Source of the DNA: Pseudomonadota bacterium
GTDB lineage: Bacteria > Pseudomonadota > Alphaproteobacteria > Rickettsiales > UBA8987
Assembly: GCA_048498735.1 (NCBI GenBank)
Contig: JBEHXK010000004.1
Location: forward strand, 2,283 to 66,282
Direction: 5' to 3'
DNA: 64,000 nt
Shown here: positions 3,001 to 61,082 of the stretch, piece after piece
Numbering within the stretch: position 1 is the stretch's first letter
How the letters are laid out: every line of letters begins with the position of its first letter
The notes under the pieces: generated by a model
The model's input: the letters and a program-made list of their open reading frames with translations, nothing else
Told to the model about the DNA's origin: nothing
Databases searched by the model: none
Program-made: the position numbers and the translations under genes

Positions 3001-6000
3001 ATTTTGACTGTCTGTCAGGCCATTTGTTTCCCAAGTTTTTTCTGCCATATGCTGGCTCAACATCGCCTTGCCACCCGCACGACCTATCCAGTTATCTTCT
3101 ATATAAACCGGGCTGCCTGAAGCACCGACCGTACCGAGTTCATATTTTTCCCAGTTCTGTTTTATATACATGCCAGAATCGGTATTAAAGCCATATGCAT
3201 AAACAGGCAGGCTAGGAATTGGAGTTATTAGAGATATAATCGGCGCATTAATATCTGTAGTCATCCAGTGCTTATATTTATAATTTGCACCACCAGCATT
3301 TAACGTATTGTTAATCACATCAAATGCAGCTGACACTACTGCCGAACCAAGTTTTGCTACACCACCACCACTCGCCATTGAATCTGAAAGGCTATTAACG
3401 ATCTTAGCACCAACGTTAGGATTACATATACCCCAAGGATTACTATCACTGACACCAAATGGATTTATAACATCCTTCCAGAAATGAGGTGGAACAACCG
3501 AACGGCAATTCCTTCTTTCCATATTCACCTGGTAACCAAGACCGTTCGTAACAGTTGATACAACATCAGAAACGTTTGTAGGATCTATAACAGGTGAGTA
3601 AAGATCAGATGTCAGTGGGATTGTATCACCGGTTATAGTTTTGGCCGCATCTGCAAGGGTTTGGAGCTGCTGGTTATTAAATGGACTACCATCACCAATA
3701 CGTGTCCCGTTCGTTAGATCACGCTGCTCTGACATCACAGAAAGTGCGCTGAAACTCAGGAAGTTATAATAGTCAAATATCTCAGGCCTGTAACCTCTTC
3801 TTCTTCTAAAACCATAATCGTTCATGTTATTCAGATTGTCGCTTAATGCACTATCAATTGCTTCCAACCCTTGGCCAACAAGATTTTTATTGTTGACGCT
3901 GGATGATTCCAAACGTTCAGGATCACTGCCAGGAAGTGAAGCAGGAGCATTCCATGATGTAAAGGCACCCACAACATTTGGCAGCGTACCACCGACCAGA
4001 TTCAGCTTTTGAGAATCAGGCGCATTAAGAACATTTTTGCGGTAGTTATTGTTCTTATCCTGCATTTTATAGAAATAATAAAGCATGGTCGCTTTGAAGG
4101 CATTACGCCCCTCCAATGCATTTTCCATACCGTAATTATCTGATGTATCGTAATATGCGACCCACTGGCACATGCTTGAATCCGGAGTTACGGCACCAAC
4201 AGTATTCCTTATAACTTTTTGGTTCGTATCAAGAACTATCGATCCCCTATCGCCTTCAAATGCCCATTGCTCAATGAACAATCTCAAGCACTGCTGCATC
4301 TTGGCTTTACGTCCCTGGTTCGATTCCACCGAAAGCACGCGAGGATCAAAGGTCTGAGGTTTTGCTCCATCCTTAGCATCAGGCGCATAAATATTATATG
4401 GATTTATAGAATAATCATTACGGCTTATTACTTTATCACGATAACCATACTCTTCCAGGCTCTGCTGGTTATGAGTAGTTGTATCACCTGATTTTGACTG
4501 CTGATCATAAACAACTCTTTCAGCGTAAGGAGTGAAACTCGGTCTTCTGTAATCCGTCGGTGTATAAATATTATTGCGGCCGAATATATCTTTCTGATTC
4601 ACCGCCGGAGTTCCAGAAGGTATCACACCTTTATACGCAAGCGGCAACCAGTGCTCCTCAGGATCAAGATCAAGAACATATGGTTTTGAAGCACTTTTTT
4701 CCCAACAATATGTATTATAGTTAAATACATATCTGTTATTGATATAGTTCTGAGTTATAGCAACCGGCACCCCGGCAATGTTGGTGGTTTGATATTCACG
4801 ATTCATGTAATAACCGCAGTAATCATCCATTTCTGCTACAGTATCATTAGCCAGGCATACAGGCAGGGAACCGCTCTGGATCCTGGCATCATCAGATGGC
4901 AATTTTACTTTCTGCATCGCTTTTACCTTTGCAGCAGGATCGCCAAGATTAACACCAGGAGAACCTGAGCTGGAACTTGATCCAGTAGAACTTGACGAAG
5001 TGGAAGTTGTTACTGAAACCATAGCGGCATTATGCTGAATCACGCAAAGAGGATGGCGCATCAGAAGCCTGTCATTAGGAACAAGATAGGTTGTGGTTTC
5101 AGCTGTAGGATCAGCAGCGGTATTGTCAGGATCAGTTCTCCCTTCAACTTTACCAGAAACCGCATCACCGGCACCGATAACTTCTTCATCCATTGGCAGG
5201 TTGGTATCATTTACAGGATTTTGCACAGAAACGATTGTTTTTGTGTATTGGCTTAAGAAACATTCATCTGCCATGGCTGCCGCTGCTGCCGCTGCTCCAG
5301 TTACTCCGGTAAGTTCGTCCAGGTCAACCACCCTTCTGGTAGGCTGATAGAATTTTATCGGCGTAGCATCTTTCCATTGACAGTTATACATAACTGACTT
5401 GGCATTATTGCTCGCATCAAACGCAAGCGGAGTACCGGCTTTATTGACAACCGGCTTGCTGAACTTGCCGGCAGGCATTAACACGAATCTCTCTTCAGGA
5501 TCATAACAACCGGTGCGGGATTCATATATATCTTCACTTGATGATCTTGCAGAAGTATCAAACGGCACGGCCTTATTGTTATTCACATAATGATTGCCAT
5601 CGGTAATATTAGGCAGATTGGAGTCTTGGGCAGGCAGATGCGTGTAGAAGAATTTACCGCGACCGCAATTACCTTTGTACGGGTTATTCTCACTGCTAAT
5701 TATATTCTGATAAGTTGTATCGATCGAATTATAAGCAGAACCTTCCTGCGCATTTGTGTTAGCAGTTTTACCGCCATCACTTGTTGAGTAATTCGGGAAT
5801 TTATCAAAATCAGGTTTGCCACTTGGGATCAACAAGCAATCTGGAACAACCATGCTCAATAAACCGCTTACACCATTCTGTATAACGCTACCAACATTAA
5901 TGTTAATACCATTAGAGCCGGTTATGGAGCTGGTTCCAAGCATCGGCTCACAACCTTGAGATTTAATTATATTATCTTTATTTCCGGTGATACCATCACG

Positions 6001-6633
6001 GGAAACTTTTACGCGGCGATCTTCATAACAATCTTCACATTTTTTCGTATTACCATCATGAACCGTACAGCCATCTTCCTGCATGATAGCAAATTTTATA
6101 CCCCATATATTCCTGGTACATGAATAATCGCCTGCTGAACAACCTTTATCGCAAGAACTTTGGCCTGGCGCATACGGATCTGTTCTTGCATCGGCATTTC
6201 TGAAGTAGCATTTGTCGATCATTTTATTTTCGTCCTTGAAAATACCAGTTCCAAGGAATCCATTCAGATCGATACCCTCCTTATATGCCACTATATACTG
6301 ACATTCGCCTTTTAACTGCGCCTTAACCTGCTGAAACGAAACTCTACAGTCTTCCTGCAATCTTGCTTTTATGCCTTTTGCAAGATTACCAGCAAAACAT
6401 AATAAACCATGCTTATCGGCCTGCGATATCGTGTTACAGATACTTGCATCAACATCTTTTGCGTAATAGGTATGAGCGCGGGTATCACCGCATGTCGCAT
6501 TCGGGTCCCAGCTTATTTCAAGAGGGGGAAGCCAGTTAACGCTTGGGTCAAATTGAGCGCTTTGCGCACCGGAAGAAACTATAGCAGCAAGGGCTATGAT
6601 AGGTATTTGGAGGATTTTCCAGTATTTCTTCAT
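1..6633 (-). CDS. Giant secreted protein of unknown family; N-terminal 2,211 codons only (the gene runs off the left edge of the window)
   Basis: Absent from the supplied ORF track, presumably because it has no in-window stop. Hand translation of the reverse strand gives ATG at 6633-6631 and then an unbroken frame to position 1 (6633 = 3 x 2211). Plus-strand triplets in register 1,4,7... never read tta/cta/tca. The N-terminus MKKYWKILQIPIIALAAIVSSGAQSA is a Sec signal peptide. Only 60-92 aa shadow ORFs lie on the + strand across the same 6.6 kb. Confidence 0.85.
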   Translation of the reverse strand, partial: MKKYWKILQIPIIALAAIVSSGAQSAQFDPSVNWLPPLEISWDPNATCGDTRAHTYYAKDVDASICNTISQADKHGLLCFAGNLAKGIKARLQEDCRVSFQQVKAQLKGECQYIVAYKEGIDLNGFLGTGIFKDENKMIDKCYFRNADARTDPYAPGQSSCDKGCSAGDYSCTRNIWGIKFAIMQEDGCTVHDGNTKKCEDCYEDRRVKVSRDGITGNKDNIIKSQGCEPMLGTSSITGSNGININVGSVIQNGVSGLLSMVVPDCLLIPSGKPDFDKFPNYSTSDGGKTANTNAQEGSAYNSIDTTYQNIISSENNPYKGNCGRGKFFYTHLPAQDSNLPNITDGNHYVNNNKAVPFDTSARSSSEDIYESRTGCYDPEERFVLMPAGKFSKPVVNKAGTPLAFDASNNAKSVMYNCQWKDATPIKFYQPTRRVVDLDELTGVTGAAAAAAAMADECFLSQYTKTIVSVQNPVNDTNLPMDEEVIGAGDAVSGKVEGRTDPDNTAADPTAETTTYLVPNDRLLMRHPLCVIQHNAAMVSVTTSTSSSSTGSSSSSGSPGVNLGDPAAKVKAMQKVKLPSDDARIQSGSLPVCLANDTVAEMDDYCGYYMNREYQTTNIAGVPVAITQNYINNRYVFNYNTYCWEKSASKPYVLDLDPEEHWLPLAYKGVIPSGTPAVNQKDIFGRNNIYTPTDYRRPSFTPYAERVVYDQQSKSGDTTTHNQQSLEEYGYRDKVISRNDYSINPYNIYAPDAKDGAKPQTFDPRVLSVESNQGRKAKMQQCLRLFIEQWAFEGDRGSIVLDTNQKVIRNTVGAVTPDSSMCQWVAYYDTSDNYGMENALEGRNAFKATMLYYFYKMQDKNNNYRKNVLNAPDSQKLNLVGGTLPNVVGAFTSWNAPASLPGSDPERLESSSVNNKNLVGQGLEAIDSALSDNLNNMNDYGFRRRRGYRPEIFDYYNFLSFSALSVMSEQRDLTNGTRIGDGSPFNNQQLQTLADAAKTITGDTIPLTSDLYSPVIDPTNVSDVVSTVTNGLGYQVNMERRNCRSVVPPHFWKDVINPFGVSDSNPWGICNPNVGAKIVNSLSDSMASGGGVAKLGSAVVSAAFDVINNTLNAGGANYKYKHWMTTDINAPIISLITPIPSLPVYAYGFNTDSGMYIKQNWEKYELGTVGASGSPVYIEDNWIGRAGGKAMLSQHMAEKTWETNGLTDSQNADAAVDYAYFGGDGTYEAYEEIPRTVDTGPKLGVMVLNESNLTASKEWVDHSWPASSCIHNQPINITKTIGLVPNLFGIQGWPDIPNVPTSVIDEVYNKKNADSSGNNDLIVDADGRKYYQIDKDSPNANQVRDAWHVYDDINIGKMPILTPPPSNSSSSSGGSITYTDNKEFGGFKVRDNETPYFEWLPHAWSIAVGLNKAFWCEFEVPYNPFFKGNVAGKDTVGNDIKVDNDFNFNKTPIMSHFWVNNMDTIITKSDPVDLAAAKPKLELYRVERIRDTCGPFGVRSTWVDDPNTMLGKWLLGEDNPASKSRCAGWLDLYKRGTTDPKIIAWRLPRFDYEFLKSFLDCTGPVIDVPGSVSYDKTNGNPDWYKSPCHENVDALARNKQNALCEAAKAVVNVALAVYGQDDPIECDLSLVGSMASTVDNALAKVPGSNVDPKENFYTGACRKTGCYKISSTGTGSSKKYTVTKYTSVEKAVDNAIRAIDYATRGDTFYGREKEFEAVIIGTQSGSNFTVTKTITPANATSDDTSYSSSNSVTASSSTSGGGTTADYKKTLTDIANTLGDIKKLETTVRKYITDINNLVSGSSTNSSGQPANKDGVDNDGDGTVDEADEKTESLQSDIQNLQRVSKMLRGTVDQLSKASASGYAQSDFCDKPMTQPAAGDPPFASNHIDDNYDGRVDEPGETGPTVNSSLATAKATVNKLQTNIVKPVDDKLNGTLQAIRGISISFNIGKAKVKFGFKTIKTVADVLASVFGASEYMDAFDDSMKAGDDLSSAIGSEISTATGVTKFFTQAQNVCTNMKNGVTGSISMNASAEFKPTLDSIDDTLNTAASAVNTIASTLNTINSTLTTIDKFLGAAQTALSTAAKAVGAADLANKIDKGLDQFSGDLGGLGSIDVSGGMTTLVTDGDPDYALESFRNYASGSVQQQEFWLNKPPSSGDISKYGETEPFGFWCNCPVDNPTTTRCREDFCTTEQHVLLVGRNISIGADGKTD

Positions 6634-6814
6634 CTGCCGCCAGTATCTCTAATATAGCAATTATACAATATTTTAATAAAAAATTAACTAAAAATTCATA
6701 AAATATGCTAAAATATTCTTCTTTTTGATCGACATATACTTATATATACTCATCACTGTCTAGACAATTAAATTTTGCTTAAAATCGCTTTATTACGGGA
6801 TTTTTATTATAAAC

Positions 6815-7600
6815 ATGTCAGAAAGCCGTAAATTCAATAATGATGACTATCGCGAACTTGCCGAAAAGATAGAATCCGGCCAATATTTCCAGGAAGCACA
6901 GGACTGGTATCTTAAGAAATATATGTACCAGTTCATTGAGCGGTCATATCTGATAATGCTGCTTCTGGCATTACTTATACTGGGCATGTTCCTGCGCAGT
7001 TATTATCATAGCATTTTACCTATCAGGAAAAGCTTGCCTATCCAGGTTAATATTTCTTCTGCGGCGGAATATTCAACGCGCATAACCTATCTTGGCAACG
7101 GCCGTAAAGATTTTGATGTGAATGATGTTTATGTGAATTATTTTGCAGGACGTTTTGTTGAAGCGATTGAAAGCTATGATTACCGGGATGATTTCAAGAA
7201 ACTGCGTATCAACAAAACCCTTATACATGAACTGGCTTCAAGTGATATATATGATTACTACATGGATAAAATATCGATTCGTAACGCAGATAGCGTGATT
7301 TTAAAATATCGCAAAAAAATATACCGCGTTATTAACGTTGATAAATCGAAAACTGAAATAGCCCTGATCCCTAAGGACAAGAACGATATCTATAATGACA
7401 AGAATGATGATATGCGCAAATATCAGGCAACAGTGAATTTCACCGCAACTGAATATGACCGCAACGGTATAGGAACTAAATCAAACTGGCAGGCTAAGTT
7501 TATCTTGTCTTTCCAGACCATAAAATATAATTTCAAGGAAAAGGATTTTTCACCGCTGAATTTTAAAGTTTTGAGCTATGAGAGTAAAAGGATCGATTAA
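6815..7600 (+). CDS. virB8: VirB8-like type IV secretion inner-membrane protein
   Basis: 261 aa. The cytoplasmic N-terminus carries YFQEAQDW (cf. VirB8 YF.EA.SWE). One TM helix (YLIMLLLALLILGMFL) is followed by a periplasmic domain with RFVEAIESYDY and C-terminal SPLNFKVLSYE (cf. Brucella VirB8 NPLGFNVTSYR). It overlaps the next gene by 23 nt. Confidence 0.7.
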   Translation: MSESRKFNNDDYRELAEKIESGQYFQEAQDWYLKKYMYQFIERSYLIMLLLALLILGMFLRSYYHSILPIRKSLPIQVNISSAAEYSTRITYLGNGRKDFDVNDVYVNYFAGRFVEAIESYDYRDDFKKLRINKTLIHELASSDIYDYYMDKISIRNADSVILKYRKKIYRVINVDKSKTEIALIPKDKNDIYNDKNDDMRKYQATVNFTATEYDRNGIGTKSNWQAKFILSFQTIKYNFKEKDFSPLNFKVLSYESKRID

Positions 7601-8429
7601 GTTTTTAGCACTGCTGGGGATTTTACTTCTGGCAAATAATTCATATGCAGCAAATGCCGTGAAAAGCATGCCTATAAACGGTGACAGAAGATTGCGCATG
7701 TGGAATTACCAGCCTAATACCATGTATGAATATACCGGTGTTACAAAAGCACCTTCCCGCATAGAACTTGACCCGACTGAAGAGATAGCAAGCATAACAA
7801 TGGGTGATCCGACCGACTGGCAGATAAACCCGGTAGGATCTACTCTTTTCCTGAAGCCAGTTGCAGCGAATGCCAATACGAACATGACAATCATCACCAA
7901 TAAACGCACATATTATTTTGAGATGTATTCAAAAGAAGGCACTGGCATGGATGACCCGGATATGGCCTTACTGACGAAATTCAATTATGTTGATGCCGAA
8001 GGTGCCAATGGCGATTCAAACTCAAGCGACTTTATCGACCTTTCCTCTTCTGCAACTACAGGCGCACCTGATTATGTTCCTGACCCATTGCAAAGCACAA
8101 AAGGTCTGAACTTAGGATATAGCATGAGCGGCTCTAAGGATATAGCACCACTCGAGGCTTTTGATGATGGCGAATTCACCTATTTCAAATTCAAAAATAT
8201 TAATGCTGATTATCCTGCGATCTTCCAGGTTCTGCCCGATGGAAACGAAGCTATTGTGAATTACCGAGTTTCAAGAAATGGTTATGTGGTGATAGAGATG
8301 GTCACCAGCCAATATACGCTTCGCTTCGGCAGTCAGATGGCTTGTATATTCAATGATTCCAAGCCTCTTCCTTATGTTAGCAGGAAAATAAAGAAGAGCA
8401 ATGAGGCCTCTTCCTACGGCATATATTAA
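7578..8429 (+). CDS. virB9: VirB9/TrbG/CagX-family type IV secretion outer-membrane core protein
   Basis: 283 aa. Signal peptide MRVKGSIKFLALLGILLLANNSYAANA. The N-domain shows YEYTGV...ITMGDPTDWQINPVGSTLFLKPV...TNMTIITNKRTYYFEM. The C-domain shows PLEAFDDGEFTYFKF...PAIFQVLPDGNEAIVNYRV..GYVVIE....YTLRFG. Both are classic VirB9 signatures. Confidence 0.8.
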   Translation: MRVKGSIKFLALLGILLLANNSYAANAVKSMPINGDRRLRMWNYQPNTMYEYTGVTKAPSRIELDPTEEIASITMGDPTDWQINPVGSTLFLKPVAANANTNMTIITNKRTYYFEMYSKEGTGMDDPDMALLTKFNYVDAEGANGDSNSSDFIDLSSSATTGAPDYVPDPLQSTKGLNLGYSMSGSKDIAPLEAFDDGEFTYFKFKNINADYPAIFQVLPDGNEAIVNYRVSRNGYVVIEMVTSQYTLRFGSQMACIFNDSKPLPYVSRKIKKSNEASSYGIY

Positions 8430-10298: not shown

Positions 10299-10314
10299 TG
10301 GCATAAGAGTTGCT
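10299..10314 (+). promoter_or_regulatory. Candidate sigma-54 (-24/-12) promoter for the 10346 gene
   Basis: TGGCAT-AAGAG-TTGCT compared with the consensus TGGCAC-N5-TTGCW. GG and GC are separated by exactly 10 nt. The site is intergenic, about 32 nt upstream of the ATG at 10346. Confidence 0.55.
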
Positions 10315-10319
10315 AATAT

Positions 10320-10341
10320 AATCCTTAAAACCTTAAGGATT
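10320..10341 (+). promoter_or_regulatory. Perfect 9-bp stem / 4-nt loop hairpin covering the Shine-Dalgarno of the 10346 gene
   Basis: AATCCTTAA-aacc-TTAAGGATT. The 3' arm contains AAGGA (10335-10339), 6 nt upstream of the ATG. No T-tract follows, so it is not a classical terminator for ilvB. Confidence 0.5.
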
Positions 10342-10345
10342 AGTC

Positions 10346-10984
10346 ATGAGCATCAATAATTTAACCTCTTCTTACTATAATTTGAGCCAGCAGCTTGCGT
10401 CACAAAGCAGCTCTAGCGGAACAAGCAGTTCATCCGATATTGATTCGCTCATTAAGCAGCTTGAAGGTGCAAGCACCTCAACTTCATCAGACAGCAATGA
10501 TGCTTTCAGCCTGAATTTAAGCCAAAGCGCACAAGATCTGCTTGATTCCGGATCTACAAACAGCACAAGCAGCTCCTCATCAACTGCAAGTTATACACTT
10601 ACAAAAGCGCAGCAGAAACAGCTTGATGCGATTCTTGCTAAATATAAGGATGCACCTTTTACACAAGATACATATAACCAGATCCAGGATGAGCTTCAAA
10701 AGGCTGGACTTGCACCAGATCAACTAGCTACTGAAGATAAAATAAAAAGCTTTAATACCACTCAGGTATTTATCGATGCGCTAAATGGCAAGGATGATTC
10801 CTCTTCATCTTCAACATCATCTGATGGCAGCACTTCAAGCAGTGACAGCACTGATTCTGATACAAAATCATCTAACTATATGCAGCAAGTGGTTTCGCAA
10901 TGGAAAAGCATTTCAACTACAGCCAATGCTGATAACTCTTCCACTGATCAAACATCAGGAAGCGGCATTTCAATTGATGCTTAA
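10346..10984 (+). CDS. Ser/Thr/Asp-rich low-complexity protein, no signal peptide or TM segment
   Basis: 212 aa. Ser runs include SSSSGTSSSS, STSSSSST and DDSSSSSTSSDGSTSSSDSTDSD. A less biased central block reads YTLTKAQQKQLDAILAKYKDAPFTQDTYNQIQDELQKAGL. Good SD. The N- and C-termini resemble those of the convergent neighbour. Confidence 0.7.
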   Translation: MSINNLTSSYYNLSQQLASQSSSSGTSSSSDIDSLIKQLEGASTSTSSDSNDAFSLNLSQSAQDLLDSGSTNSTSSSSSTASYTLTKAQQKQLDAILAKYKDAPFTQDTYNQIQDELQKAGLAPDQLATEDKIKSFNTTQVFIDALNGKDDSSSSSTSSDGSTSSSDSTDSDTKSSNYMQQVVSQWKSISTTANADNSSTDQTSGSGISIDA

Positions 10985-11008
10985 AAAAATAGAATTTTTG
11001 AAGATAAA

Positions 11009-11509
11009 TTAAGCTACGTCAGAATAAGTAGAGCCTGAACCCGAACCAGTGTTAACCAGCGTATTAGTTGCGCTTTCATATGCGCTGATCGCTTTCTGGA
11101 TAGGATCGGTGCTTAAAGCGGTTGTGCTGTCATTAGAAATAGATGAACTTGCATTCGTGCTGTAAGCGGTTTTTAGCAGATTATTATATGAACTTGAAAG
11201 CAGGCTGTTCACCAAGCCATCATCGCTACTATTGCTACTACCTAATATATCAGATGTAGTGCTGGTGCCGCTAAGAAGTTGGCTAAGAAGTGAAGCAACA
11301 TCAGATGAAAGCGAAACCTGATCCTGGTTTTGGCTTGAAGTGTTATTTGTAAGCGCTTTTGTAAGGGTATCAGTTAGTGAATCTGCAAAGCTTGAACTTG
11401 AATCATCACCTGAAAGCAGACTGCTTATAGAACTTGCTGTTGAATTTGAAGAACTCTTGCTACCAAGAAGTGAGCTAAGATATGAAGTAGTGTTCAATAT
11501 CGATGTCAT
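11009..11509 (-). CDS. Ser/Thr-rich low-complexity protein, paralog-like partner of 10346..10984
   Basis: 166 aa. The N-terminus MTSILNTTSYLSSLLGS matches MSINNLTSSYYNLSQQLAS in the partner. The C-terminus NTGSGSGSTYSDVA matches TSGSGISIDA. No signal peptide or TM. Confidence 0.65.
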   Translation of the reverse strand: MTSILNTTSYLSSLLGSKSSSNSTASSISSLLSGDDSSSSFADSLTDTLTKALTNNTSSQNQDQVSLSSDVASLLSQLLSGTSTTSDILGSSNSSDDGLVNSLLSSSYNNLLKTAYSTNASSSISNDSTTALSTDPIQKAISAYESATNTLVNTGSGSGSTYSDVA

Positions 11510-11732
11510 GAAAATAATATAGCACAGAAAGATGGGTTAAACAAATTTAATCACAGAAATTATTTCGTATTTTAAATAGAATTTTTATACCGTTGCTTTT
11601 AAGTTTGCAACTCTACGGCTGAACCGCCAAATCTCTGTGCTTACTTATTATTTTCTTATGATTCCAACCTTAAGTTTATATCGATAGGTTATATGAATCG
11701 CGATATTCTTTATTCATAATAAGAATCTTATA

Positions 11733-12134
11733 ATGAATATGGGCTTAAGATTTAAAAAAATATTTATCGCATTTTTCATGATAGCCGGACTCGATGCCTG
11801 TTCGACTGTTGATAATATGAATTATATGGACAGGAATGACTTGATTCAAGCACGCGGCACAGAAAATATCGATGGCGTGAGATATATGGATTATGGTAAT
11901 ACAAGCAGTATAAAAAGTTTAGGAGCACTGAAATTTAAAGGCTTTGATGAAGATAGCGGTGAACCTGATGATACTGTTATAGATCTGAAACGTAATAAAT
12001 CACGTTTATATGCTGAAACGCCCGTGTTTGAAAGCGACAACAAAGATAAATCCACCTTCGATAAAGGCCTGTTCAACTTCGGCATAGATAAAAAATCCAA
12101 AGGCCTTGGTATGGAACTTTCACTGCAATTCTAA
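11733..12134 (+). CDS. Small putative lipoprotein
   Basis: 133 aa. The N-terminus MNMGLRFKKIFIAFFMIAGLDAC has a lipobox-like LDAC, which is atypical at position -2. Confidence 0.5.
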   Translation: MNMGLRFKKIFIAFFMIAGLDACSTVDNMNYMDRNDLIQARGTENIDGVRYMDYGNTSSIKSLGALKFKGFDEDSGEPDDTVIDLKRNKSRLYAETPVFESDNKDKSTFDKGLFNFGIDKKSKGLGMELSLQF

Positions 12135-12304: not shown

Positions 12305-12766
12305 TTGAGTATTTTTCTTTCTACATATATTAACAAAATCGATAAAAAGGGGCGCGTTTCAGTGCCTGCCGCCTATCGCACCGTTACAGCAAAAGAAAAT
12401 TTCCACGGTATAATCGCTTACCCTTCATTTGTGCATGAATGCATTGAAGCCTGCGGCATAAGCCGCATTGAAAAGATCTCGGAAGCTATCGACACTATGG
12501 ACCCATATAGCGAAGATCGTGATGCCTTTGCGGCAGCAATCTTGGGTGAAGCACAACAGCTTGGTTTTGATAATGAAGGACGCGTAACACTTTCAGAGCA
12601 ATTGATAGAAAAAGCAAAGCTGAAAGATCAGGCTATTTTTGTCGGCAAAGGCCAGACCTTTGAGATCTGGAACCCGGATAATTATAATAAATATGCACGT
12701 AATGCCCGTGATATTGCAAAACAAAATCGCGGCAAACTTAGTTTGATAGGTAAAGCGGGCAAATGA
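12305..12766 (+). CDS. mraZ: Transcriptional regulator MraZ
   Basis: 153 aa. SIFLSTYINKIDKKGRVSVPAAYR plus a second DNEGRVTLSEQL repeat. It is the first gene of the dcw block. The track start is TTG. Confidence 0.9.
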   Translation: MSIFLSTYINKIDKKGRVSVPAAYRTVTAKENFHGIIAYPSFVHECIEACGISRIEKISEAIDTMDPYSEDRDAFAAAILGEAQQLGFDNEGRVTLSEQLIEKAKLKDQAIFVGKGQTFEIWNPDNYNKYARNARDIAKQNRGKLSLIGKAGK

Positions 12767-13800
12767 GATATCTGATCAACATACAGGATTATTCCCTTGA
12801 TGAGATTTGTTATATATACGAGAAGGCTGAGACATTAAAATATTTTGCTGAAATGAACTATGAACATCACATACCAGTATTGTTAAATGAAACATTGGAA
12901 CTTCTGCAGCCAAAAGATGGGGAAGTTTATGTTGATTGCACTTTTGGTGCCGGCGGTCATACACATGCGATATTAAAAGCTGCAAATTGTAAAGTGATCT
13001 CGATCGATCGCGACCCTCATACAAAACTTCTTGCGGATAAATTTGAAGCAGAATTCGGTGATCGCTTTACGTATGTGAATGATCGATTCAGCAATATCGA
13101 CAATATTCTTGATGATCTGAAAATTGAAAAAGTTGACGGCATAATCATGGATCTTGGTTTTTCCTCCATGCAGGTTGATACGCCACGTCGCGGCTTTTCA
13201 TTCCAGGCGGAAGGCCCGCTTGATATGCGCATGAGCAGCAGCGGTATTTCAGCGGCCGACTTCATCAACAATGCGTTTGAAGAAGAGATATCAGATATAC
13301 TTTACCGTTTCGGTGATGAGAAAAAATCCCGTCCGATCGCACGTGCAATTGTCCGCGAACGTGCAAAAGAAAAAATCACTACCACCACCAGACTTGCAGA
13401 AATAATTTCCGCCGCTGCTGGAAAATATGATGATGACATCAATGCTGCGACGAGAAGTTTTCAGGCGATAAGAATTTTCATCAATGAAGAATTTGAAGAA
13501 TTAAAAACTGTGTTGCAAATAGCAAAAGATCGATTAAAAGAAAATGGTAGGTTAGTTGTAATTACGTTCCATTCCGGGGAAGATAGTATAGTGAAAGATT
13601 TCTTTAAGAAGTATTCAGGCTCTGAAAGCCGCAGTTTCTCAAGGTATTCGCCGTCTTCAGTTTTGCCGCAGAATTCCGTCGCAAATGATTTTGAATTGCT
13701 CACCTCAAAACCTATCGGGCCAAGTGATGAAGAAATTGAAAATAATATTCGTGCACGTTCAGCAAAAGTTCGTGCAGTAAAAAGACTGGCGGCATTATAA
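12763..13800 (+). CDS. rsmH: 16S rRNA (cytosine1402-N4)-methyltransferase RsmH
   Basis: Motifs HIPVLLNETLELL, DCTFGAGGH, DLGFSSMQVD and RSFQAIRIFINEE. Conserved sequence begins near aa 36, so the ATG at 12853 (MNYEHHIPVLL) is a plausible alternative start. Confidence 0.9.
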   Translation: MRYLINIQDYSLDEICYIYEKAETLKYFAEMNYEHHIPVLLNETLELLQPKDGEVYVDCTFGAGGHTHAILKAANCKVISIDRDPHTKLLADKFEAEFGDRFTYVNDRFSNIDNILDDLKIEKVDGIIMDLGFSSMQVDTPRRGFSFQAEGPLDMRMSSSGISAADFINNAFEEEISDILYRFGDEKKSRPIARAIVRERAKEKITTTTRLAEIISAAAGKYDDDINAATRSFQAIRIFINEEFEELKTVLQIAKDRLKENGRLVVITFHSGEDSIVKDFFKKYSGSESRSFSRYSPSSVLPQNSVANDFELLTSKPIGPSDEEIENNIRARSAKVRAVKRLAAL

Positions 13801-13803
13801 AAT

Positions 13804-14139
13804 ATGAAAGTCAGACTTAGCACATATATTTATATTATTTCATGCCTGGCGATGGCGTGCATGGTATATTATTTCGAAAATAAGGTGCATGAAGTTACGG
13901 AAAAGATAGCCGATGTTAATGAGAAACTATCACATTATGATAATGACCTGCGCGTTCTTGAAGCTGAATGGAGCTATCTGAATGATCCAGACAGACTTGG
14001 AAAGCTAACCGCTCAAATCCATGATGATATGAACAGTCCGATAAGGGTGCAGTTCACTAACCTGAAAGATCTTCCTACACGTGAAGTGATGTCTGCCAGC
14101 AATGCGGGCAATATAACCGCGCAGAATATAATTCCATGA
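13804..14139 (+). CDS. ftsL: Cell division protein FtsL-like (single-pass membrane protein)
   Basis: 111 aa. N-terminal TM (YIYIISCLAMACMVYYF) followed by a coiled-coil-like segment. It holds the canonical position between rsmH and ftsI and overlaps ftsI by 4 nt. Confidence 0.65.
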   Translation: MKVRLSTYIYIISCLAMACMVYYFENKVHEVTEKIADVNEKLSHYDNDLRVLEAEWSYLNDPDRLGKLTAQIHDDMNSPIRVQFTNLKDLPTREVMSASNAGNITAQNIIP

Positions 14140-15872
14140 GAAATCCGGCACGCCCAAGGCCAAGCCTGATACTTGAAGGTTCAATCGACAGGGCGATCAA
14201 ACGTGCACAAGTAAGGCTTATAATATTGGGCTGCATGATATTGATCACTTTCCTTGCGGTTGCTGGTAAAACAGTAAAGCTAACTTTCTTCTTTGAACCG
14301 GAAGCCATCAAGCGCCTGAGCTACACAAAATCAGCAATTGAGCGTGCAGAAAACCCAGTTCCGACATCAGAAAAATTCCGCAAATCAATATATGATCGTA
14401 ATGGAATTCTGATTTCCTCGAACCTTATAACCTCATCACTTTATTGCGATCCGAAAGTCATGATCGATGAGAAGAACGCCGCACATCAGCTTGCAGCGAT
14501 CTTGCCGGAACTTGATGAAAAAGACCTATATAAAAAATTTACTGATAAAACTAAAAGCTTCGTCTGGCTGAAACGCAGCCTGCACCCAAAACAGAAATAT
14601 GAGATCAATGCGCTTGGTATCCCGGGTCTGAACTTTGAAGATGAGGAAAAAAGGATCTATCCGCACGGTAATCTGTTCGCGCATGTTATAGGCATGGTTG
14701 GCCAGGATGGCCACGGCCTGAGCGGCTTGGAAAAATATCTCGATACAGTTCCAATAGATAGTTATGACAAAGTTCTGAAAAACGACAGTATAGTCACCAC
14801 ACTTGATACACGTATACAATCTATCCTTCATGATGAGGTTCAGAAAGCATTTGATAAACACCACCCTGTGAATGCCAGCGGTATTGTCATGGATGTAAAT
14901 ACCGGCGAAATTTTGGCCATGGTGAGCCTACCTGATTTTGATCCCAACCTGCCACGCAGTGTTAAGCCTTCGAATATGTTCAATATGGCAACGCTTGGTG
15001 ATTACGAGCTTGGCTCGGTATTCAAGCCATTCACTTTTGCAACCGCGCTGGATAACGACAAAATAAACGAAAAGATGATCTTCGATGCAAGCCATCCACT
15101 GCAAATCGGCAAGGCAAAGATATCAGATTATCATGCCAAGAACCGTCCGCTTTCTGTGCCAGAAATATTGATGTATTCATCTAATATTGGTACTGGCAAG
15201 ATTGCAATGGAAGTTGGCATGGATAAAATGCAGGATTATTTCCACCGCTTCCATTTCTATGACAAGCTTGATACTGAAATTCAGGAAAAATCTACCCCCA
15301 CTACACCGAAAAAATGGAGCGAAGTTGGTTTGGTTACTATGTCATTCGGCCATGGCCTTGCATTATCACCATTACATGTGGCAGCGGGTTTAAGCGCGAT
15401 CGTTAATGGTGGATATTATTATGAACCTACACTTATAAAACGTTCAAAATCTGAGCAGCTGACGCAGCCAACACGTGTTATTTCCAAGAAAACATCTGAA
15501 CGCATGCGCGTTCTATTGCGCCTGGTCGTGGCAGGTGGTTCGGGAACACATGCGAATGTGGATGGTTATCTGGTCGGTGGTAAAACTGGAACTGCAAATA
15601 AGATCGAAGGCGGAAAATATAGCGACAACCGGGTTGTCGGTTCATTCATTGGTGTGTTCCCTTATAACGACCCAAAATATCTGGTGTTTGTTGTGCTTGA
15701 TGACCCTAAAGGAACGCCTGATACGCATGGCTTCATAACCGGCGCTTGGGTTGCAGCGCCCGCGGTTGCCAATGTTATAACCCGTATGGCGCCGATAATG
15801 AAAGTTCGTCCACAACAGGATGACACCAAAGAGATATTGACTAAATTCGGCCTTGAAAACGCCTCCGATTAG
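14136..15872 (+). CDS. ftsI: Peptidoglycan D,D-transpeptidase FtsI (class B PBP)
   Basis: 578 aa. TM anchor plus SxxK (GSVFKPF), SxN (YSSNIG) and KTG (GKTGTA) motifs. Confidence 0.9.
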   Translation: MRNPARPRPSLILEGSIDRAIKRAQVRLIILGCMILITFLAVAGKTVKLTFFFEPEAIKRLSYTKSAIERAENPVPTSEKFRKSIYDRNGILISSNLITSSLYCDPKVMIDEKNAAHQLAAILPELDEKDLYKKFTDKTKSFVWLKRSLHPKQKYEINALGIPGLNFEDEEKRIYPHGNLFAHVIGMVGQDGHGLSGLEKYLDTVPIDSYDKVLKNDSIVTTLDTRIQSILHDEVQKAFDKHHPVNASGIVMDVNTGEILAMVSLPDFDPNLPRSVKPSNMFNMATLGDYELGSVFKPFTFATALDNDKINEKMIFDASHPLQIGKAKISDYHAKNRPLSVPEILMYSSNIGTGKIAMEVGMDKMQDYFHRFHFYDKLDTEIQEKSTPTTPKKWSEVGLVTMSFGHGLALSPLHVAAGLSAIVNGGYYYEPTLIKRSKSEQLTQPTRVISKKTSERMRVLLRLVVAGGSGTHANVDGYLVGGKTGTANKIEGGKYSDNRVVGSFIGVFPYNDPKYLVFVVLDDPKGTPDTHGFITGAWVAAPAVANVITRMAPIMKVRPQQDDTKEILTKFGLENASD

Positions 15873-15897
15873 CCTATATTCTTCACACTTTTAGCCA

Positions 15898-18800
15898 ATG
15901 GCACTGAAGTTCAACATAAAAAATTCCACGAGGAATTTTCTATCTGATATACCTGCAGGCAGTGAAGTTTTCCCTCTGATCGAGATGGCTGAAAATTCAC
16001 CCGGCGGGCTGGTTCACATTTGCAAAAACGATTTTTATCTTGAAAAAATCCACGACCTTTTAAGTTTTTTTGCACCACAGATTAAACTATATTCCCTGCC
16101 CGCCTGGGATACAAATCCTTATGATAAGGTTTCGCCTAATCCTGAAGTTATTTCTGAGCGCCTGAAAACCCTGGCCGATATTTCTGGAGGACTAAAGAAA
16201 TGCGAAATAGTTCTGACAACCGCAAACGCATTAATTCAAAAACTGGTTCCACTTGAGGTTATAAAAGCCTCACACCTTAATATAAAGGTAAAGCAGCAGA
16301 TAAAACGCGAAGACATTTTAAGTTTCCTGGTCAATAACAGCTATATAAACGTGGCTGCAGCGGCTGATCATGGCGAATTTGCAGTTCGCGGAAGTATAAT
16401 AGATATTTTCCCACCATCATCGGCCAACGGCATTCGTCTGGATTTTTTTGGCGATGAGATTGAAACCATCAGAACCTATGACCCGTTAACGCAGATATCA
16501 TTGAGTAATATTGATGCTTTTGAACTGATACCTGCCAGTGAAGTGCTTCTTAATAAAAAATATATAGATAGTTTTAAGGAAAATTTTCTCGGCGAATTCG
16601 GGCCTGAATCTGGCAAAGATCCGGTATTTGAAGCCGTGATGGAAGGGCGTAAATATCCCGGATTTGAAAATTATTTACCGTTATTTTATGGCAGGCTTGC
16701 GAGTATTTTTGATTATGCACCACAGGCGATTTACAGTTTTGAACATGACCTTGAACCAGTAGTGGAAGAACGCCACGCGCATATAAAAGATAGCTATAAT
16801 GCAAGGCTTTCATACGCTAAATCTGGTCGTTATGGCAATGCAGATCATTTCATCCCGCCGGAAAAATTATATATAATGGAAGAGGAATATAAAAAGCTTC
16901 TCTCTAATCGCACGGAAGTTTTTTTCAGCCATTACAACATGCCAGAATCAATCATTGCCGGCTATAAACCAATCACTTCATATTTTGCAGAAGCAAAACC
17001 ACATAACCGCTCTGCACTTGACCTTTTCCGTGATGAACTGGCCGAGAACTTCAACAAAAACAATAAAACCAAAACTATTATCGCATGCATGAGCGCAGGA
17101 AGTTCAGAGCGTATGGCATCACTGCTCACTGAGCATGAAATAAAAAATATATTGATCACCGATTATTCAAAAGAGCAGGCCCTTCTGAATCGAACCAATG
17201 TGGGTGTGGCCGTGTTAGCGCTTGAACATGGGTTTGAGGCAGAAGGCATAAAGCTGGTGAGTGAAGCTGATCTGCTGGGCGAGAAGATATATCGTCGCAA
17301 GAGCGGACGCGGTAAAAAAGCAGAAGATTTCATACGCGAGGCAGCGAACCTTTCAACCGGTGAACTGGTTGTTCATAAAGAACATGGAATTGGAAAATTC
17401 ATCGGCCTGGAAACTTTAAAGATAAATAATACGGAACATGATTTCATTCTGCTAGAATATCTGGGGGGCGATAAATTATATGTTCCGGTTGAGAATATAG
17501 AGCTGATCAGCCGTTATGGTGGTGATAGCGAACATGTTGAAGTTGATAAGCTTGGCAGCCTGCAATGGCAGGAACGCACTGCTAAAGTTAAAAAGCGCAT
17601 AAAAGTTCTGGCAGAAGAGTTGATCAAGATCGCAGCAGAACGTGAAGTTCGTGGCGGAACGGTTTTTGATTTCCAAAGCGGTGCCTATGAAGAATTTGCC
17701 AGCCGTTTTCCTTACGTTGAAACTGATGACCAGTTAGGGGCCATAGAAGATGTGATGGATGATATTGTTTCCGGCAGGCCAATGGATAGGCTGATCTGCG
17801 GTGATGTTGGCTTTGGTAAAACTGAAGTTGCCTTGCGTGCTGCATTTGCAGTGGTGCAGAACAATAATAAAGAACAGCGTGCACAAGTGGCGGTGATATG
17901 CCCAACCACCCTGCTCTGCCGCCAGCATTATAACACTTTCCTGCAGCGTTTTGAGGGAACCGGAATTGTTATAAAACAACTTTCACGCATGGTTAGCAGT
18001 GGGGATATCAAAAAATCTAAAGAAGCGATAAAGAATGGTGAGGTTGATATAGTTATTGGTACTCATGCACTGCTTGCAGCCAATATGGAATTCAAAAACC
18101 TTTCGATGATAATAATAGATGAGGAACAGCGTTTTGGTGTTGCACAGAAAGAAAAGCTCAAAAAACTACGCGCCAATACTCACGTTCTAACCCTGACGGC
18201 AACCCCTATTCCACGCACATTGCAATTGTCACTCACGGGAATACGCGATCTTTCACTTATCGCAACGCCACCGGTTGACAGGCTGGCCGTTCGCACATTT
18301 GTAATGCCTTATGATGATGTGACCATACGCGAAGCAATATTGAAAGAGCATTATCGCGGGGGAAGAACTTATTTCGTCGCACCACGCATTACCGACCTCG
18401 AAGCATTGGAAAAGCGCCTGAAGGAAAACATTCCCGAAGTTCGCATAGTTTCAGCACATGGCCGCATGAAGCCTGACGAACTGGATAAGATCATGAATGA
18501 TTTTGATGAAGGCAAGTTTGATGTGCTGCTTGCAACAACGATAGTTGAATCTGGCCTGGATGTTTCTGCCGCTAATACAATTATAATATATCGCGCTGAT
18601 ATGTTCGGCCTGGCGCAGTTATATCAATTACGTGGGCGCGTCGGCAGAAGCAAGGTTCGTGCCTATGCTTACCTGACAGTTCCACCGCGCAAGATATTAA
18701 CCAAACATGCAGAAAAACGTTTAGAAGTTATGCAGAAGCTTGATAGCCTGGGCGCCGGTTTTACACTTGCAAGTTATGATATGGATATACGCGGTTTCGG

Positions 18801-19407
18801 CAACCTGCTTGGAGATGAGCAGAGTGGTAACATTAAGGAAGTTGGGGTTGAGCTTTATCAAAGCATGCTGCGTGATGCAATTGATTCCCTAAAAGCCAGC
18901 AATGATAATGTTGAAGAAGAAAAAAGTGATGGCATTTATTCTATAAAACTGAATTTAGGCATTTCCGTTCTGATACCGGAAAATTATGTTAACGATTCTG
19001 ACTTGAGAATGGGTCTGTATCGCCGCCTCGGCAATTTACAGAACGAAGCAGAGATAGAAAGCTTCGCGGTTGAGCTGGCAGATCGTTTTGGAAAAATACC
19101 TGAGGAAGTAGAAAATTTACTGGAAACATTAAAGATAAAATTTTTATGCCGCGAACTTGGCATTGAAAAACTTGATGCCGGTGAAAAAGGAGCTTCGATC
19201 CAGTTTCATAATAATAAATTCGCATATCCAGATGCGCTTATCAAGTTGCTGGCCATGAATCCGGTGCGCTTCAAAATAAAAGATGGCAGCAAATTCATAA
19301 TCGCGAATTGCAATTGGGCTGACCTGAAAGTGCGCGTGTTGGAATTAAAGAAGGTTCTGACCGAGATAAAAAACTTTGTGCATAACAATATAGTTAATGT
19401 GGCATGA
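15898..19407 (+). CDS. mfd: Transcription-repair coupling factor Mfd
   Basis: 1,169 aa. Superfamily-2 translocase motifs GDVGFGKTEVA, DEEQRFGV, TATPIPRT and QLRGRVGR. Confidence 0.95.
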   Translation: MALKFNIKNSTRNFLSDIPAGSEVFPLIEMAENSPGGLVHICKNDFYLEKIHDLLSFFAPQIKLYSLPAWDTNPYDKVSPNPEVISERLKTLADISGGLKKCEIVLTTANALIQKLVPLEVIKASHLNIKVKQQIKREDILSFLVNNSYINVAAAADHGEFAVRGSIIDIFPPSSANGIRLDFFGDEIETIRTYDPLTQISLSNIDAFELIPASEVLLNKKYIDSFKENFLGEFGPESGKDPVFEAVMEGRKYPGFENYLPLFYGRLASIFDYAPQAIYSFEHDLEPVVEERHAHIKDSYNARLSYAKSGRYGNADHFIPPEKLYIMEEEYKKLLSNRTEVFFSHYNMPESIIAGYKPITSYFAEAKPHNRSALDLFRDELAENFNKNNKTKTIIACMSAGSSERMASLLTEHEIKNILITDYSKEQALLNRTNVGVAVLALEHGFEAEGIKLVSEADLLGEKIYRRKSGRGKKAEDFIREAANLSTGELVVHKEHGIGKFIGLETLKINNTEHDFILLEYLGGDKLYVPVENIELISRYGGDSEHVEVDKLGSLQWQERTAKVKKRIKVLAEELIKIAAEREVRGGTVFDFQSGAYEEFASRFPYVETDDQLGAIEDVMDDIVSGRPMDRLICGDVGFGKTEVALRAAFAVVQNNNKEQRAQVAVICPTTLLCRQHYNTFLQRFEGTGIVIKQLSRMVSSGDIKKSKEAIKNGEVDIVIGTHALLAANMEFKNLSMIIIDEEQRFGVAQKEKLKKLRANTHVLTLTATPIPRTLQLSLTGIRDLSLIATPPVDRLAVRTFVMPYDDVTIREAILKEHYRGGRTYFVAPRITDLEALEKRLKENIPEVRIVSAHGRMKPDELDKIMNDFDEGKFDVLLATTIVESGLDVSAANTIIIYRADMFGLAQLYQLRGRVGRSKVRAYAYLTVPPRKILTKHAEKRLEVMQKLDSLGAGFTLASYDMDIRGFGNLLGDEQSGNIKEVGVELYQSMLRDAIDSLKASNDNVEEEKSDGIYSIKLNLGISVLIPENYVNDSDLRMGLYRRLGNLQNEAEIESFAVELADRFGKIPEEVENLLETLKIKFLCRELGIEKLDAGEKGASIQFHNNKFAYPDALIKLLAMNPVRFKIKDGSKFIIANCNWADLKVRVLELKKVLTEIKNFVHNNIVNVA

Positions 19408-37739: not shown

Positions 37740-37931
37740 TCCATAAACTTAAGATAAATCTCGGAATTCTCAATACTTCGCTTTATTTATGCTGCAATGC
37801 GGTCATTGATTTTATTAGTTTGATATCTTAATAACACAATCTCTCTAACAAAATAACCTTATTTTTAAATAACTTAATTAATATATACTCTTGTTAATCG
37901 TTTGTTAACTTTATTGTTATATATTAATAGG

Positions 37932-60725: not shown

Positions 60726-61082
60726 ATGAAAAAGTCACTTCTTACTCTAACTGCCATCAGCACTATGGCAATTGCCACAGCTTCTTTCGCTCACGATGGT
60801 GATAAAGATGGCCATAAAGGTCCTAATAAAGACTGGAAAGAAAAAGTGTTCAAGGAAATGGATGCTAATAACGATGGTAAAGTTTCTAAGGACGAATATC
60901 TAGCTTACGAAGGTAAAAAATTCGATGAAATAGATGTTAACAAAAAAGGTGCTTTAACTCCTGAGGATTTCGAAGCTCATCACAAAGCGATGATGGAAAA
61001 ATTCCATAAGGATCATCCTAAAAAATCAGATAACAGCACAACAGCTCCAGCTACTGATACAGCTCCTGTAGAAGGTAAATAG
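60726..61082 (+). CDS. Periplasmic EF-hand calcium-binding protein
   Basis: 118 aa. Signal peptide. Canonical EF loop DANNDGKVSKDE and a second loop DVNKKGALTPED. AAGGAG SD. Confidence 0.75.
   Translation: MKKSLLTLTAISTMAIATASFAHDGDKDGHKGPNKDWKEKVFKEMDANNDGKVSKDEYLAYEGKKFDEIDVNKKGALTPEDFEAHHKAMMEKFHKDHPKKSDNSTTAPATDTAPVEGK

Follow-up and report, generated by a model that had tools for sequence, protein, structure and literature searches.

The window analysed here is the whole 64-kb stretch of contig JBEHXK010000004.1 (assembly GCA_048498735.1), ordinary chromosomal alphaproteobacterial DNA of ~41% GC, and our subject is a pair of tail-to-tail genes within it, which we call P1 and P2. P1 (10346-10984, + strand) encodes an acidic, Cys-free protein of 212 residues, in which Ser/Thr-rich linkers lie between conserved helices and which we assign to a family termed family 1; P2 (11009-11509, - strand) encodes a Cys-free, S/T/N/Q/A-rich protein of 166 residues, a divergent member of a second, companion family. 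The two stop codons are separated by an A/T-rich spacer of 24 bp (10985-11008), in which a search for intrinsic terminators returned 0 terminator-like sites. A preliminary description of the locus had reported the tail-to-tail open reading frames (ORFs), their 24-bp gap, their lengths and their terminal sequences correctly. A Shine-Dalgarno-like AAGGA, read from the sequence, lies 6 nt ahead of the P1 ATG (10335-10339, + strand), and GGAG or AGGA occupies the same spot in loci homologous to P1.

Both window proteins have a strikingly biased composition, with 26% Ser, 10% Thr and 10% Asp in P1 and 30% Ser, 13% Leu, 13% Thr and 8% Asn in P2. The label hyper-Ser, originally attached to the pair, fits the window copy but not the family: P1 ranks first among 123 family 1 members in Ser and in Ser plus Thr (0.36 vs a median of 0.24), so that its Ser extremity is a local feature, in a genome of ~41% GC, rather than a defining trait.

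For codon usage we computed log-odds scores, with 33 long ORFs from the window as the training set; bona fide genes score 0.19-0.36 on this scale. P1 reached 0.276 and P2 0.32 in the proposed frames, and each of the five other frames scored lower. All 26 family 1 relatives and all 10 companion relatives keep the sense frame open, and the alternative frames carry 4-10 stops each on average, including the antisense frames 10375-10566 and 11340-11522, whose equal conservation had been named beforehand as the mark of an artefact; only the sense frames are open, and the genes withstand this comparison. Based on the coding scores, the frame conservation, the 230 clusters found for family 1 and the significance of P2 against other companions (see below), we conclude that P1 and P2 are genuine genes. 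That the ORFs are instead open by chance in AGC/TCA-rich DNA, or represent a degenerate flagellin remnant, might be argued from the strongly biased composition, from the failure of P2 to match anything in a word-indexed protein search, from the absence of its exact sequence from a collection of 15 billion proteins and from the lack of a visible Shine-Dalgarno sequence ahead of its ATG. Against this stand the frame-specific conservation across all relatives, the gene-like codon usage, the conserved non-repetitive motifs, the conserved promoter and ribosome-binding site, the annotation of P2 as a 166-residue gene in GCA_048498495.1 and the lack of a Flagellin_N/C match, and we regard the artefact explanation as refuted for practical purposes.

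Family 1 and its predicted fold

A word-indexed search with P1 retrieved six homologs (E 7e-36 to 4e-23), and an exhaustive profile search across 1.84 billion representative sequences recovered 230 clusters at 50% identity with E<=1e-3, 127 of them at E<=1e-30. Nearly all members are ~180-215 residues long and are matched end to end. Neither P1 nor P2 matched Pfam or NCBIfam models, flagellin models included, even at E<=10, and scanning 25 family 1 members against Pfam gave scattered sub-threshold noise only, as did the PHROGs and PADLOC libraries for the module as a whole. Family 1 had no sequence-profile match in PDB, no Foldseek match in PDB and none of significance in BFVD, and the module had no relative in IMG/VR viral contigs. 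The initial impression that no described family matches these proteins is thus borne out for Pfam, NCBIfam, PDB, PHROG and PADLOC, and sequence comparison places P1 and P2 in two previously undescribed protein families.

Conservation in family 1 is concentrated in four elements, joined by Ser/Thr/Gly/Asn-rich linkers of variable length. The first is the extreme N-terminus (MSINNLTSSYYNLSQQLAS in P1; 10346-10402, + strand), with the consensus M-[ST]-[ST]-I-[NST]-[SNT]...YYQL; among the 123 aligned members, position 2 is S60/T51, position 3 is S45/T43, position 4 is I86/V12 and position 5 is N49/S32/T18. The second is the AFSLNLSQSAQDLL helix (10502-10543, + strand; consensus AYxLDLSPxAQxYL), in which L58, S59 and A62 are nearly invariant across the same 123 sequences; the region of this helix is the sole segment that aligns with the companion family, and the next helix in the chain reads FxLTxxQQxxI. 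The third is a helical core at residues ~81-150 (10586-10795, + strand), which includes the KYKDAPFTQDT loop (10640-10672) and the motifs PDQLA and SFNTT. It contains the most conserved element of the family, ILxKYKDAPxTQxTFxxIQxDLxxAGLxPxQLAxxDxxxSFNxT, and its invariant or near-invariant positions are L85, I96, K99, Y100, K101, D102, A103, P104, T106, Q107, T109, I113, L117, L127, F136 and G148. The fourth is a C-terminal helix at residues ~166-195 (10841-10930, + strand), with the (near-)invariant W186 in WKSIST (10901-10918).

Using the 123-sequence alignment, AlphaFold2 returned an all-helical model of P1 with an overall predicted local distance difference test score (pLDDT) of 73 and a predicted template modelling score (pTM) of 0.60; local pLDDT was 83-97 at residues ~81-150 and 92-95 at residues 171-190. 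With 7 sequences the pLDDT was only 46. As modelled, family 1 has a compact core of helices that bears the conserved KYKDAPxTQ loop, and variable, Ser/Thr-rich linkers that are predicted to be disordered. Both this conserved, non-repetitive core and the sigma-54 promoter upstream of P1 had been missed in the preliminary description.

The companion family and a conserved two-gene module

Word-indexed searches with P2 and with the companion profile returned nothing or only an input sequence, since low-complexity words saturated the index, and the companion family was instead recovered by an iterated hidden Markov model (HMM) over the ORFs flanking family 1 loci. The locus set comprised 6 genome loci, 19 metagenome loci (a 25-sequence alignment subset having served as query) and a few look-ups. 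A companion gene adjoins family 1 in the window and in L005, L006, L011, L013, L015, L016/L017, L018, L021, L022, L025, L027 and L030, and locus L009 carries a variant companion (L009c) beside family 1, which gives ~14 linked loci in all; ~9 loci with adequate flanks have no adjacent companion. The usual layout is divergent, the companion lying immediately upstream of family 1 on the other strand, and the convergent layout of the window is the exception.

The companion signature comprises MVxAIS..FDPxxYL, LxLSSAVLSLLQ, NPLSGLY and P-V/I-Q-N-x-I-x-S-Y-N-x-A-x-N-A-Y-N-x-x-L-x-Q-N-A-Q-A. In P2 the second of these appears as VSLSSDVASLL (11285-11317, - strand), with L67 nearly invariant and L75 invariant in the family, and the last as PIQKAISAYESATN (11063-11104, - strand; consensus P-V/I-Q-N-x-I-x-S-Y-N-x-A-x-N), with I141, Y144 and N149 conserved. 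The iterated HMM recovered P2 as well, and composition-adjusted BLASTP connected it to L009c (E=1.3e-7) and to the companion of L006 (L006c, E=3.5e-4). Against an HMM of three other companions, from which it had been left out, P2 scored 8.3 bits, compared with -19.8 +/- 3.5 bits and a maximum of 0.0 for 500 shuffled sequences. The C-terminal half of the companions has heptad-repeat character; a match to the coronavirus spike heptad repeat 1 among PDB profiles (E ~0.03) was rejected as reflecting heptad-repeat composition only. Taken together, the two families form a conserved two-gene module, whose members are under differential control judging from the promoters described below.

P1 and P2 had been described as paralogs with flagellin-like N-termini. 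Paralogy is not demonstrable, as BLASTP and profile-profile comparison both resolve two distinct families: composition-adjusted BLASTP of P1 against P2 gave E=0.067, and hhalign of the family 1 and companion profiles aligned a 24-column LxLSxxA motif only (probability 0.3%, E=0.2). The family 1 HMM matched no companion except L009c, and an HMM restricted to the N-terminal module of family 1 had no significant match to companions or other proteins, L011x (see below) giving E=0.32. L009c is the sole bridge: its first 100 residues align with family 1 positions 3-94 (E ~2e-7, Z=1000), and its C-terminal part aligns with P2. Because L009c bridges both families, the N-terminal regions of P1 and P2 possibly share a distant ancestor; L009c apart, hints of a shared N-terminal module across the two families are qualitative. 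As for the flagellin-like start, M-S/T-S/T-I-N/S/T is indeed conserved in family 1, but the MTSIL of P2 is not kept among companions, whose consensus is the MVxAIS..FDPxxYL given above. The flagellin D0/D1 core is absent, as had been noted at the outset: no flagellin match appeared for P1, P2 and 11 companions at E<=10 or for 25 members of family 1 at E<=1, and profile searches of PDB sequences returned no flagellin either.

A conserved sigma-54 promoter ahead of family 1

Upstream of P1 lies a predicted sigma-54-type -24/-12 promoter, TGGCATaagagTTGCT (10299-10314, + strand), with GG at 10300-10301, GC at 10312-10313 and 46 nt from the GG to the P1 ATG. The sigma-54 promoter consensus is TGGCAC-N5-TTGCW, and TGGCATaagagTTGCT matches GGCAYN5TTGCW exactly, as does the spacing between the -24 GG and the -12 GC. 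Scanning the coding strand over the 150 nt that precede each family 1 ATG for GGCA[CT]-N5-[TA]TGC[ATC], we found the element in 18/25 non-redundant loci, at a median GG-to-ATG distance of 48 nt. Elsewhere in ~322 kb, counting both strands, the pattern occurs 10 times, which corresponds to ~0.005 expected per locus (binomial P ~5e-37). Locus L030 also carries the element ahead of family 1, and L004, L020 and L023 have near-miss versions. The window has three further GGCAYN5TTGCW matches, all of them intragenic and probably due to chance. We conclude that family 1 is probably transcribed from a conserved, predicted sigma-54 -24/-12 promoter ~48 nt upstream of its ATG. The window itself encodes an intact RpoN (22666-24198, + strand; Pfam Sigma54_AID 2e-16, Sigma54_CBD 4e-50, Sigma54_DBD 2e-54), which we infer reads the P1 promoter.

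Companion genes have no sigma-54 element upstream; in 6-7 of 12 loci they are preceded by an extended -10 sigma-70 promoter, TGGTATAAT. Upstream of P2 (11510-11560, - strand), an extended -10-like sequence, TGCTATATT, ends 6 nt ahead of the ATG and there is no visible Shine-Dalgarno sequence; other companions have strong GGAGG sites. Given this spacing and the missing Shine-Dalgarno sequence, the P2 mRNA might be leaderless.

Some further sigma-54-type matches precede other small, Ser-rich, Cys-free ORFs in L011, L001, L026 and L025. The first of these ORFs, L011x (L011 4119-4591, + strand), is a truncated family 1 paralog of 139 residues (HMM E=3.5e-6) that retains the N-terminus MTSIQSS..., the FSFNFSDAALNAL motif and the first two core helices. 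A separate sigma-54 promoter, GGCATGATTATTGCT, precedes L011x, and the full-length copy lies 3 kb away. The other three, L001x (L001 5142-5990), L026x (L026 4065-4814) and L025x (L025 405-803), are Ser/Gly-rich and Cys-free, have a sigma-54 promoter ahead of them and contain tracts of five or six His residues (AVHHHHHHAV, PHHHHHHIL and GGHHHHHSS, respectively); L001x and L026x are homologous (E=2.5e-11). In L001 (5089-7459) and L026 (4005-6225) the His-tract protein, family 1 and a Stealth_CR2-family gene make up a conserved three-gene sigma-54 operon, the last gene, which is sugar-1-phosphate transferase-like, lying 4-25 nt downstream of family 1. The wider contexts of the two operons differ, and that of L001 includes methyltransferase, sulfatase and acyltransferase genes. 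This operon is a lead to phosphoglycosylation or capsule association in this subclade.

Export or regulation

The absence of a Sec signal and of transmembrane segments, remarked on from the beginning, holds for both P1 and P2. The maximum Kyte-Doolittle mean over 19 residues is -0.05 for P1 and 0.84 for P2, without a hydrophobic segment in either, and neither protein has a twin-Arg motif or a lipobox, so that no Sec, Tat or lipoprotein signal is discernible; 82/123 family 1 members have no Lys or Arg in the first 25 residues. On average family 1 contains 0.0% Cys (present in 1/123), 0.3% His, 1.1% Arg and 0.5% Trp together with 14.5% Ser, 11.9% Ala, 9.6% Thr, 8.2% Gln and 7.0% Asn, at a median net charge of -7, and the companions are similar in composition and have no Cys. 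In substrates of the Pseudomonas syringae type III secretion system (T3SS), Ser tends to exceed 10% of the first 50 residues, position 3 or 4 tends to be aliphatic or Pro, and the first 12 residues tend to be free of acidic side chains (PMC3338616). Taken singly, these rules describe 116, 118 and 117 of the 123 family 1 members, and all three hold for 108/123, compared with 3/48 ORFs in the window background; they also hold for P2, but for only 2/11 companions.

A non-Sec export route for P1 and P2 is, in our judgement, the most plausible reading of these features. We propose that an enhancer-binding protein switches family 1 on upon a signal and that both proteins would be exported unfolded, by a non-Sec route of a flagellar or type III-like kind that reads the N-terminus. 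Their site of action would be extracellular or on the cell surface, where they may form a complex and may carry (phospho)glycosylated Ser/Thr linkers. Several features point to export: the Cys-free, acidic, S/T/A/N/Q-rich composition with very little His, Arg or Trp and no Sec, Tat or transmembrane features; the conserved extreme N-terminus, with 108/123 members following the T3SS rules; and the heptad-repeat character of the companions together with the Stealth-transferase operon of L001 and L026. We put the probability of this proposal as a whole at roughly 0.4.

Several observations weigh against it. The N-terminal rules, derived for P. syringae, are not specific and are neither necessary for secretion nor universal (PMC3338616), and agreement with them is partly a consequence of Ser-rich composition, which makes the agreement a lead and not proof. 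The 64-kb window has no flagellar, injectisome or chemotaxis gene and no gene for the ATP-binding cassette (ABC) or membrane fusion protein (MFP) component of a type I secretion system (T1SS) exporter. In the other loci, inspected through ORF N-termini and clustering by eye and without family-library scans, no export-apparatus or enhancer-binding-protein gene lies beside the module, and the neighbours of family 1 other than the companion are unrelated housekeeping genes that differ from locus to locus. The activator that the proposal calls for is likewise not in evidence: no Sigma54_activat protein was found among the window ORFs of at least 150 residues that were scanned or among three more annotated from precomputed Pfam, and comparison of shared k-mers and dyads upstream of the promoters revealed no activator site, only the -10 element of the companions. 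No fold or sequence relative anchors any function, and a conserved KYKDAPxTQ loop at the surface of a compact helical domain, as modelled, fits a specific intracellular partner equally well.

The main rival is a cytoplasmic regulatory pair, in which family 1 would be a sigma-54-induced feedback modulator whose KYKDAPxTQ loop and core bind a regulator, be it an enhancer-binding protein, a sigma factor or some other kind, with the constitutive companion as antagonist or partner, by analogy with PspA-PspF, HrpV-HrpS and FlgM-sigma28. Sigma-54 promoters on one gene, extended -10 sigma-70 promoters on the other and a divergent arrangement are typical of regulator/target pairs, and the compact, confidently predicted helical domain with its invariant polar loop, the scattered sub-threshold matches (RsdA_SigD_bd, 0.011; Sigma70_r1_1, 0.25) and the lack of an export apparatus nearby in any inspected locus would all agree with it. 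The family 1 LxLSxxAQ motif also resembles the V-x-L-S-x-x-A motif of FlgM. However, the 25 family 1 members and 11 companions scanned gave no Pfam match to FlgM, PspA or a regulator family, long variable Ser/Thr-rich linkers and the lack of Cys are unusual among bacterial cytoplasmic regulators, and the strictly conserved extreme N-terminus is left unexplained. We consider a regulatory pair rather unlikely, if a serious contender.

The C-termini invite a different export route from the one proposed. In both families most chains close with a small residue and then Ala, the last residue being Ala in 63/123 family 1 members and the companions ending in ...PLVA, ...LTA or ...DVA, and one could picture surface or matrix proteins that are exported in a T1SS-like manner through a C-terminal signal and, with (phospho)glycosylated Ser/Thr residues, contribute to a coat associated with a capsule or glycoconjugate. 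Beside these small, mostly Ala termini, the acidic, Cys-free sequences and the Stealth_CR2 sugar-phosphate transferase operon of L001 and L026 would suit such a coat, and the window has a TolC-like OEP gene (61160-62884) and a PMT_2-family glycosyltransferase gene (35763-37112), both unlinked to the pair. The repeats-in-toxin (RTX) motif GGxGxD that would mark RTX-type T1SS substrates occurs in only 1/123 family 1 members and 0/11 companions, however; inspection of the loci revealed no adjacent ABC/MFP exporter, and the Stealth linkage is confined to two loci of one subclade. The C-terminal tails may resemble the 'hydroxylated tail' of HlyA. On this evidence a coat protein exported by its C-terminus seems improbable.

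Composition alone would also suit intracellular protective or scaffolding proteins, of the hydrophilin or late embryogenesis abundant (LEA) type or acting as condensate scaffolds, that are induced through sigma-54 under stress: the proteins are hydrophilic and poor in Cys and Trp, amphipathic helices alternate with disordered linkers, the gene would be inducible via sigma-54, and relatives come from peat, soil and moss. Conserved motifs and a folded core point instead to specific interactions and not to a bulk physico-chemical role, and neither the conserved N-terminus nor the gene partner would be explained; we give this idea little credence.

Returning to non-Sec export, a bolder version of it, which we regard as speculative and unlikely to hold in full, is that the module represents a new class of disordered proteins that are switched by sigma-54 and secreted by virtue of an N-terminal signal; effector-, harpin- or FlgM-like, they would use a retained or repurposed flagellar-type export gate in uncultured, probably protist-associated alphaproteobacteria, one subclade of which would phosphoglycosylate them by means of the operon-encoded Stealth transferase. 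The retention of the -24/-12 promoter across genomes of 41-59% GC marks family 1 as a core output of the sigma-54 regulon, which is poorly mapped in host-associated or reduced alphaproteobacteria, and the conserved promoter together with the fixed partner gene offers an experimental handle on two families that match nothing in curated libraries. Export by a non-Sec route would make the proteins candidates for secreted factors or effectors in lineages akin to Rickettsiales-like symbionts; a cytoplasmic location would make them a new type of sigma-54-linked regulatory pair.

Distribution and genomic context

The two families have so far been found only in uncultured alphaproteobacteria, in metagenome-assembled genomes labelled Rickettsiales, Alphaproteobacteria or Pseudomonadota, and the metagenomes that contain the module derive from peat, soil, moss and freshwater. 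A literature search on rpoN, Rickettsiales and flagella found nothing specific. Besides rpoN, the window carries genes for VirB9/CagX and a thiamine pyrophosphate (TPP)-dependent, acetolactate-synthase-like enzyme, mraZ-rsmH-ftsI, mfd, gpsA, purK, serA, glnE, argG and ftsY, and genes for an extracytoplasmic function (ECF) sigma factor, TonB/ExbB, TamA/TamB and a TolC-like protein. Among the other loci, prepilin-like neighbours of the module were rejected as an association, being confined to two related loci (L012, L013).

Other features of the window can be noted in order. A giant ORF of more than 2216 residues (1-6648, - strand) runs off the left edge; because its N-terminus (MKKYWKILQIPIIALAAIVSSGAQSA...) resembles a Sec signal peptide, it probably encodes a very large secreted or surface protein, and the left 6.6 kb hold no other ORF of at least 150 residues and no rRNA. 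An isolated type IV secretion fragment follows (6815-8429, + strand), consisting of VirB9/CagX (7578-8429; PF03524, E=1e-53) and, ahead of it, an overlapping ORF of 261 residues that has no Pfam match and is possibly VirB8-like; no other type IV secretion genes lie near VirB9/CagX, a layout that recalls the scattered rvh type of Rickettsiales. Between P2 and mraZ, an ORF of 133 residues (11733-12134, + strand; called as 118 residues in GCA_048498495.1) has a lipoprotein-like N-terminus (...FFMIAGLDAC) and no family match. The division and cell-wall cluster (12305-19407, + strand) is truncated, in that mfd (1169 residues), and not the mur genes, comes directly after mraZ, rsmH and ftsI.

The PMT_2-family gene mentioned above (35763-37112, - strand) encodes a membrane glycosyltransferase like ArnT or protein O-mannosyltransferases, a borderline assignment at 26.8 bits against a cutoff of 26.1, and a sigma-54-pattern match just within its 5' end (GGCATTCTTATTGCT, 37062-37076) is probably due to chance. 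Further along the window, a 495-residue protein (37902-39389, + strand) matches Ldh_1_N, the NAD-binding domain of lactate/malate dehydrogenases, at its N-terminus only, its C-terminal ~330 residues being without a match. Near the right end, a 105-residue protein with weak EF-hand matches (~60765-61082, + strand; L029 112-429) neighbours the TolC-like OEP gene and a MarR regulator gene (62986-63441).

Comparison with known systems

Among characterized proteins, FlgM (PF04316), an anti-sigma-28 factor exported by the flagellar T3SS, shares with family 1 a small size, largely disordered structure, Ser/Thr-richness, scarcity of Cys and lack of a Sec signal, and FlgM expression is sigma-54-dependent in several bacteria. 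Family 1 is twice as long, however, and has the core KYKDAPxTQ...PDQLA...SFN. PF04316 matched none of the 36 members scanned (25 of family 1 and 11 companions) and neither P1 nor P2, and in the loci inspected through ORF N-termini and clustering the module is never beside fliA or flagellar genes. The likeness to flagellins (PF00669/PF00700) lies in the M-T/S-S-I-N/L-T-type N-terminus, the absence of Cys, low His and Trp, richness in S/T/A/N/Q and helical termini, and late flagellar genes are sigma-54-dependent in Caulobacter-type hierarchies; family 1 differs in lacking the D0/D1 core and any Pfam or PDB sequence or fold match and in being only ~200 residues long, and the N-terminus is not flagellin-like across the companion family.

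Harpins of the HrpN/HrpZ type are likewise acidic and Cys-free, without a signal peptide and with low-complexity sequence between amphipathic helices, and the T3SS rules describe both; harpin chains, too, end in Ala. In contrast to harpins, family 1 is not Gly-rich (6% Gly), has no family match and no injectisome genes in view, and differs in its phylum-level distribution, and harpin genes depend on HrpL and not directly on sigma-54. PspA, which binds PspF, and HrpV and HrpG, which bind HrpS, are small helical proteins whose genes belong to a sigma-54 regulon, and HrpV and HrpG act as a pair; they have no sequence or fold similarity to family 1 and are without its Ser/Thr-rich disordered linkers and Cys-free composition. 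The serine-rich repeat glycoproteins (SRRPs) of Gram-positive bacteria share a very high Ser content and possible O-glycosylation with the window proteins, but they are very large proteins that combine dipeptide SRR repeats with a long signal peptide and an LPXTG anchor and that belong to a SecA2/Y2 locus. The P1/P2 module lacks these features; the longest run of S/T/D/N/G is 24 residues, and LPXT[GAN] is present in 1/123 family 1 members.

Overall, the module is more structured than the preliminary description held, with a helical core, a partner gene and a sigma-54 promoter, and at the same time less exotic, in that paralogy of its members is not demonstrable and both the tail-to-tail layout and the extreme Ser content are quirks of this locus. 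Its function probably lies in non-Sec export or in regulation.

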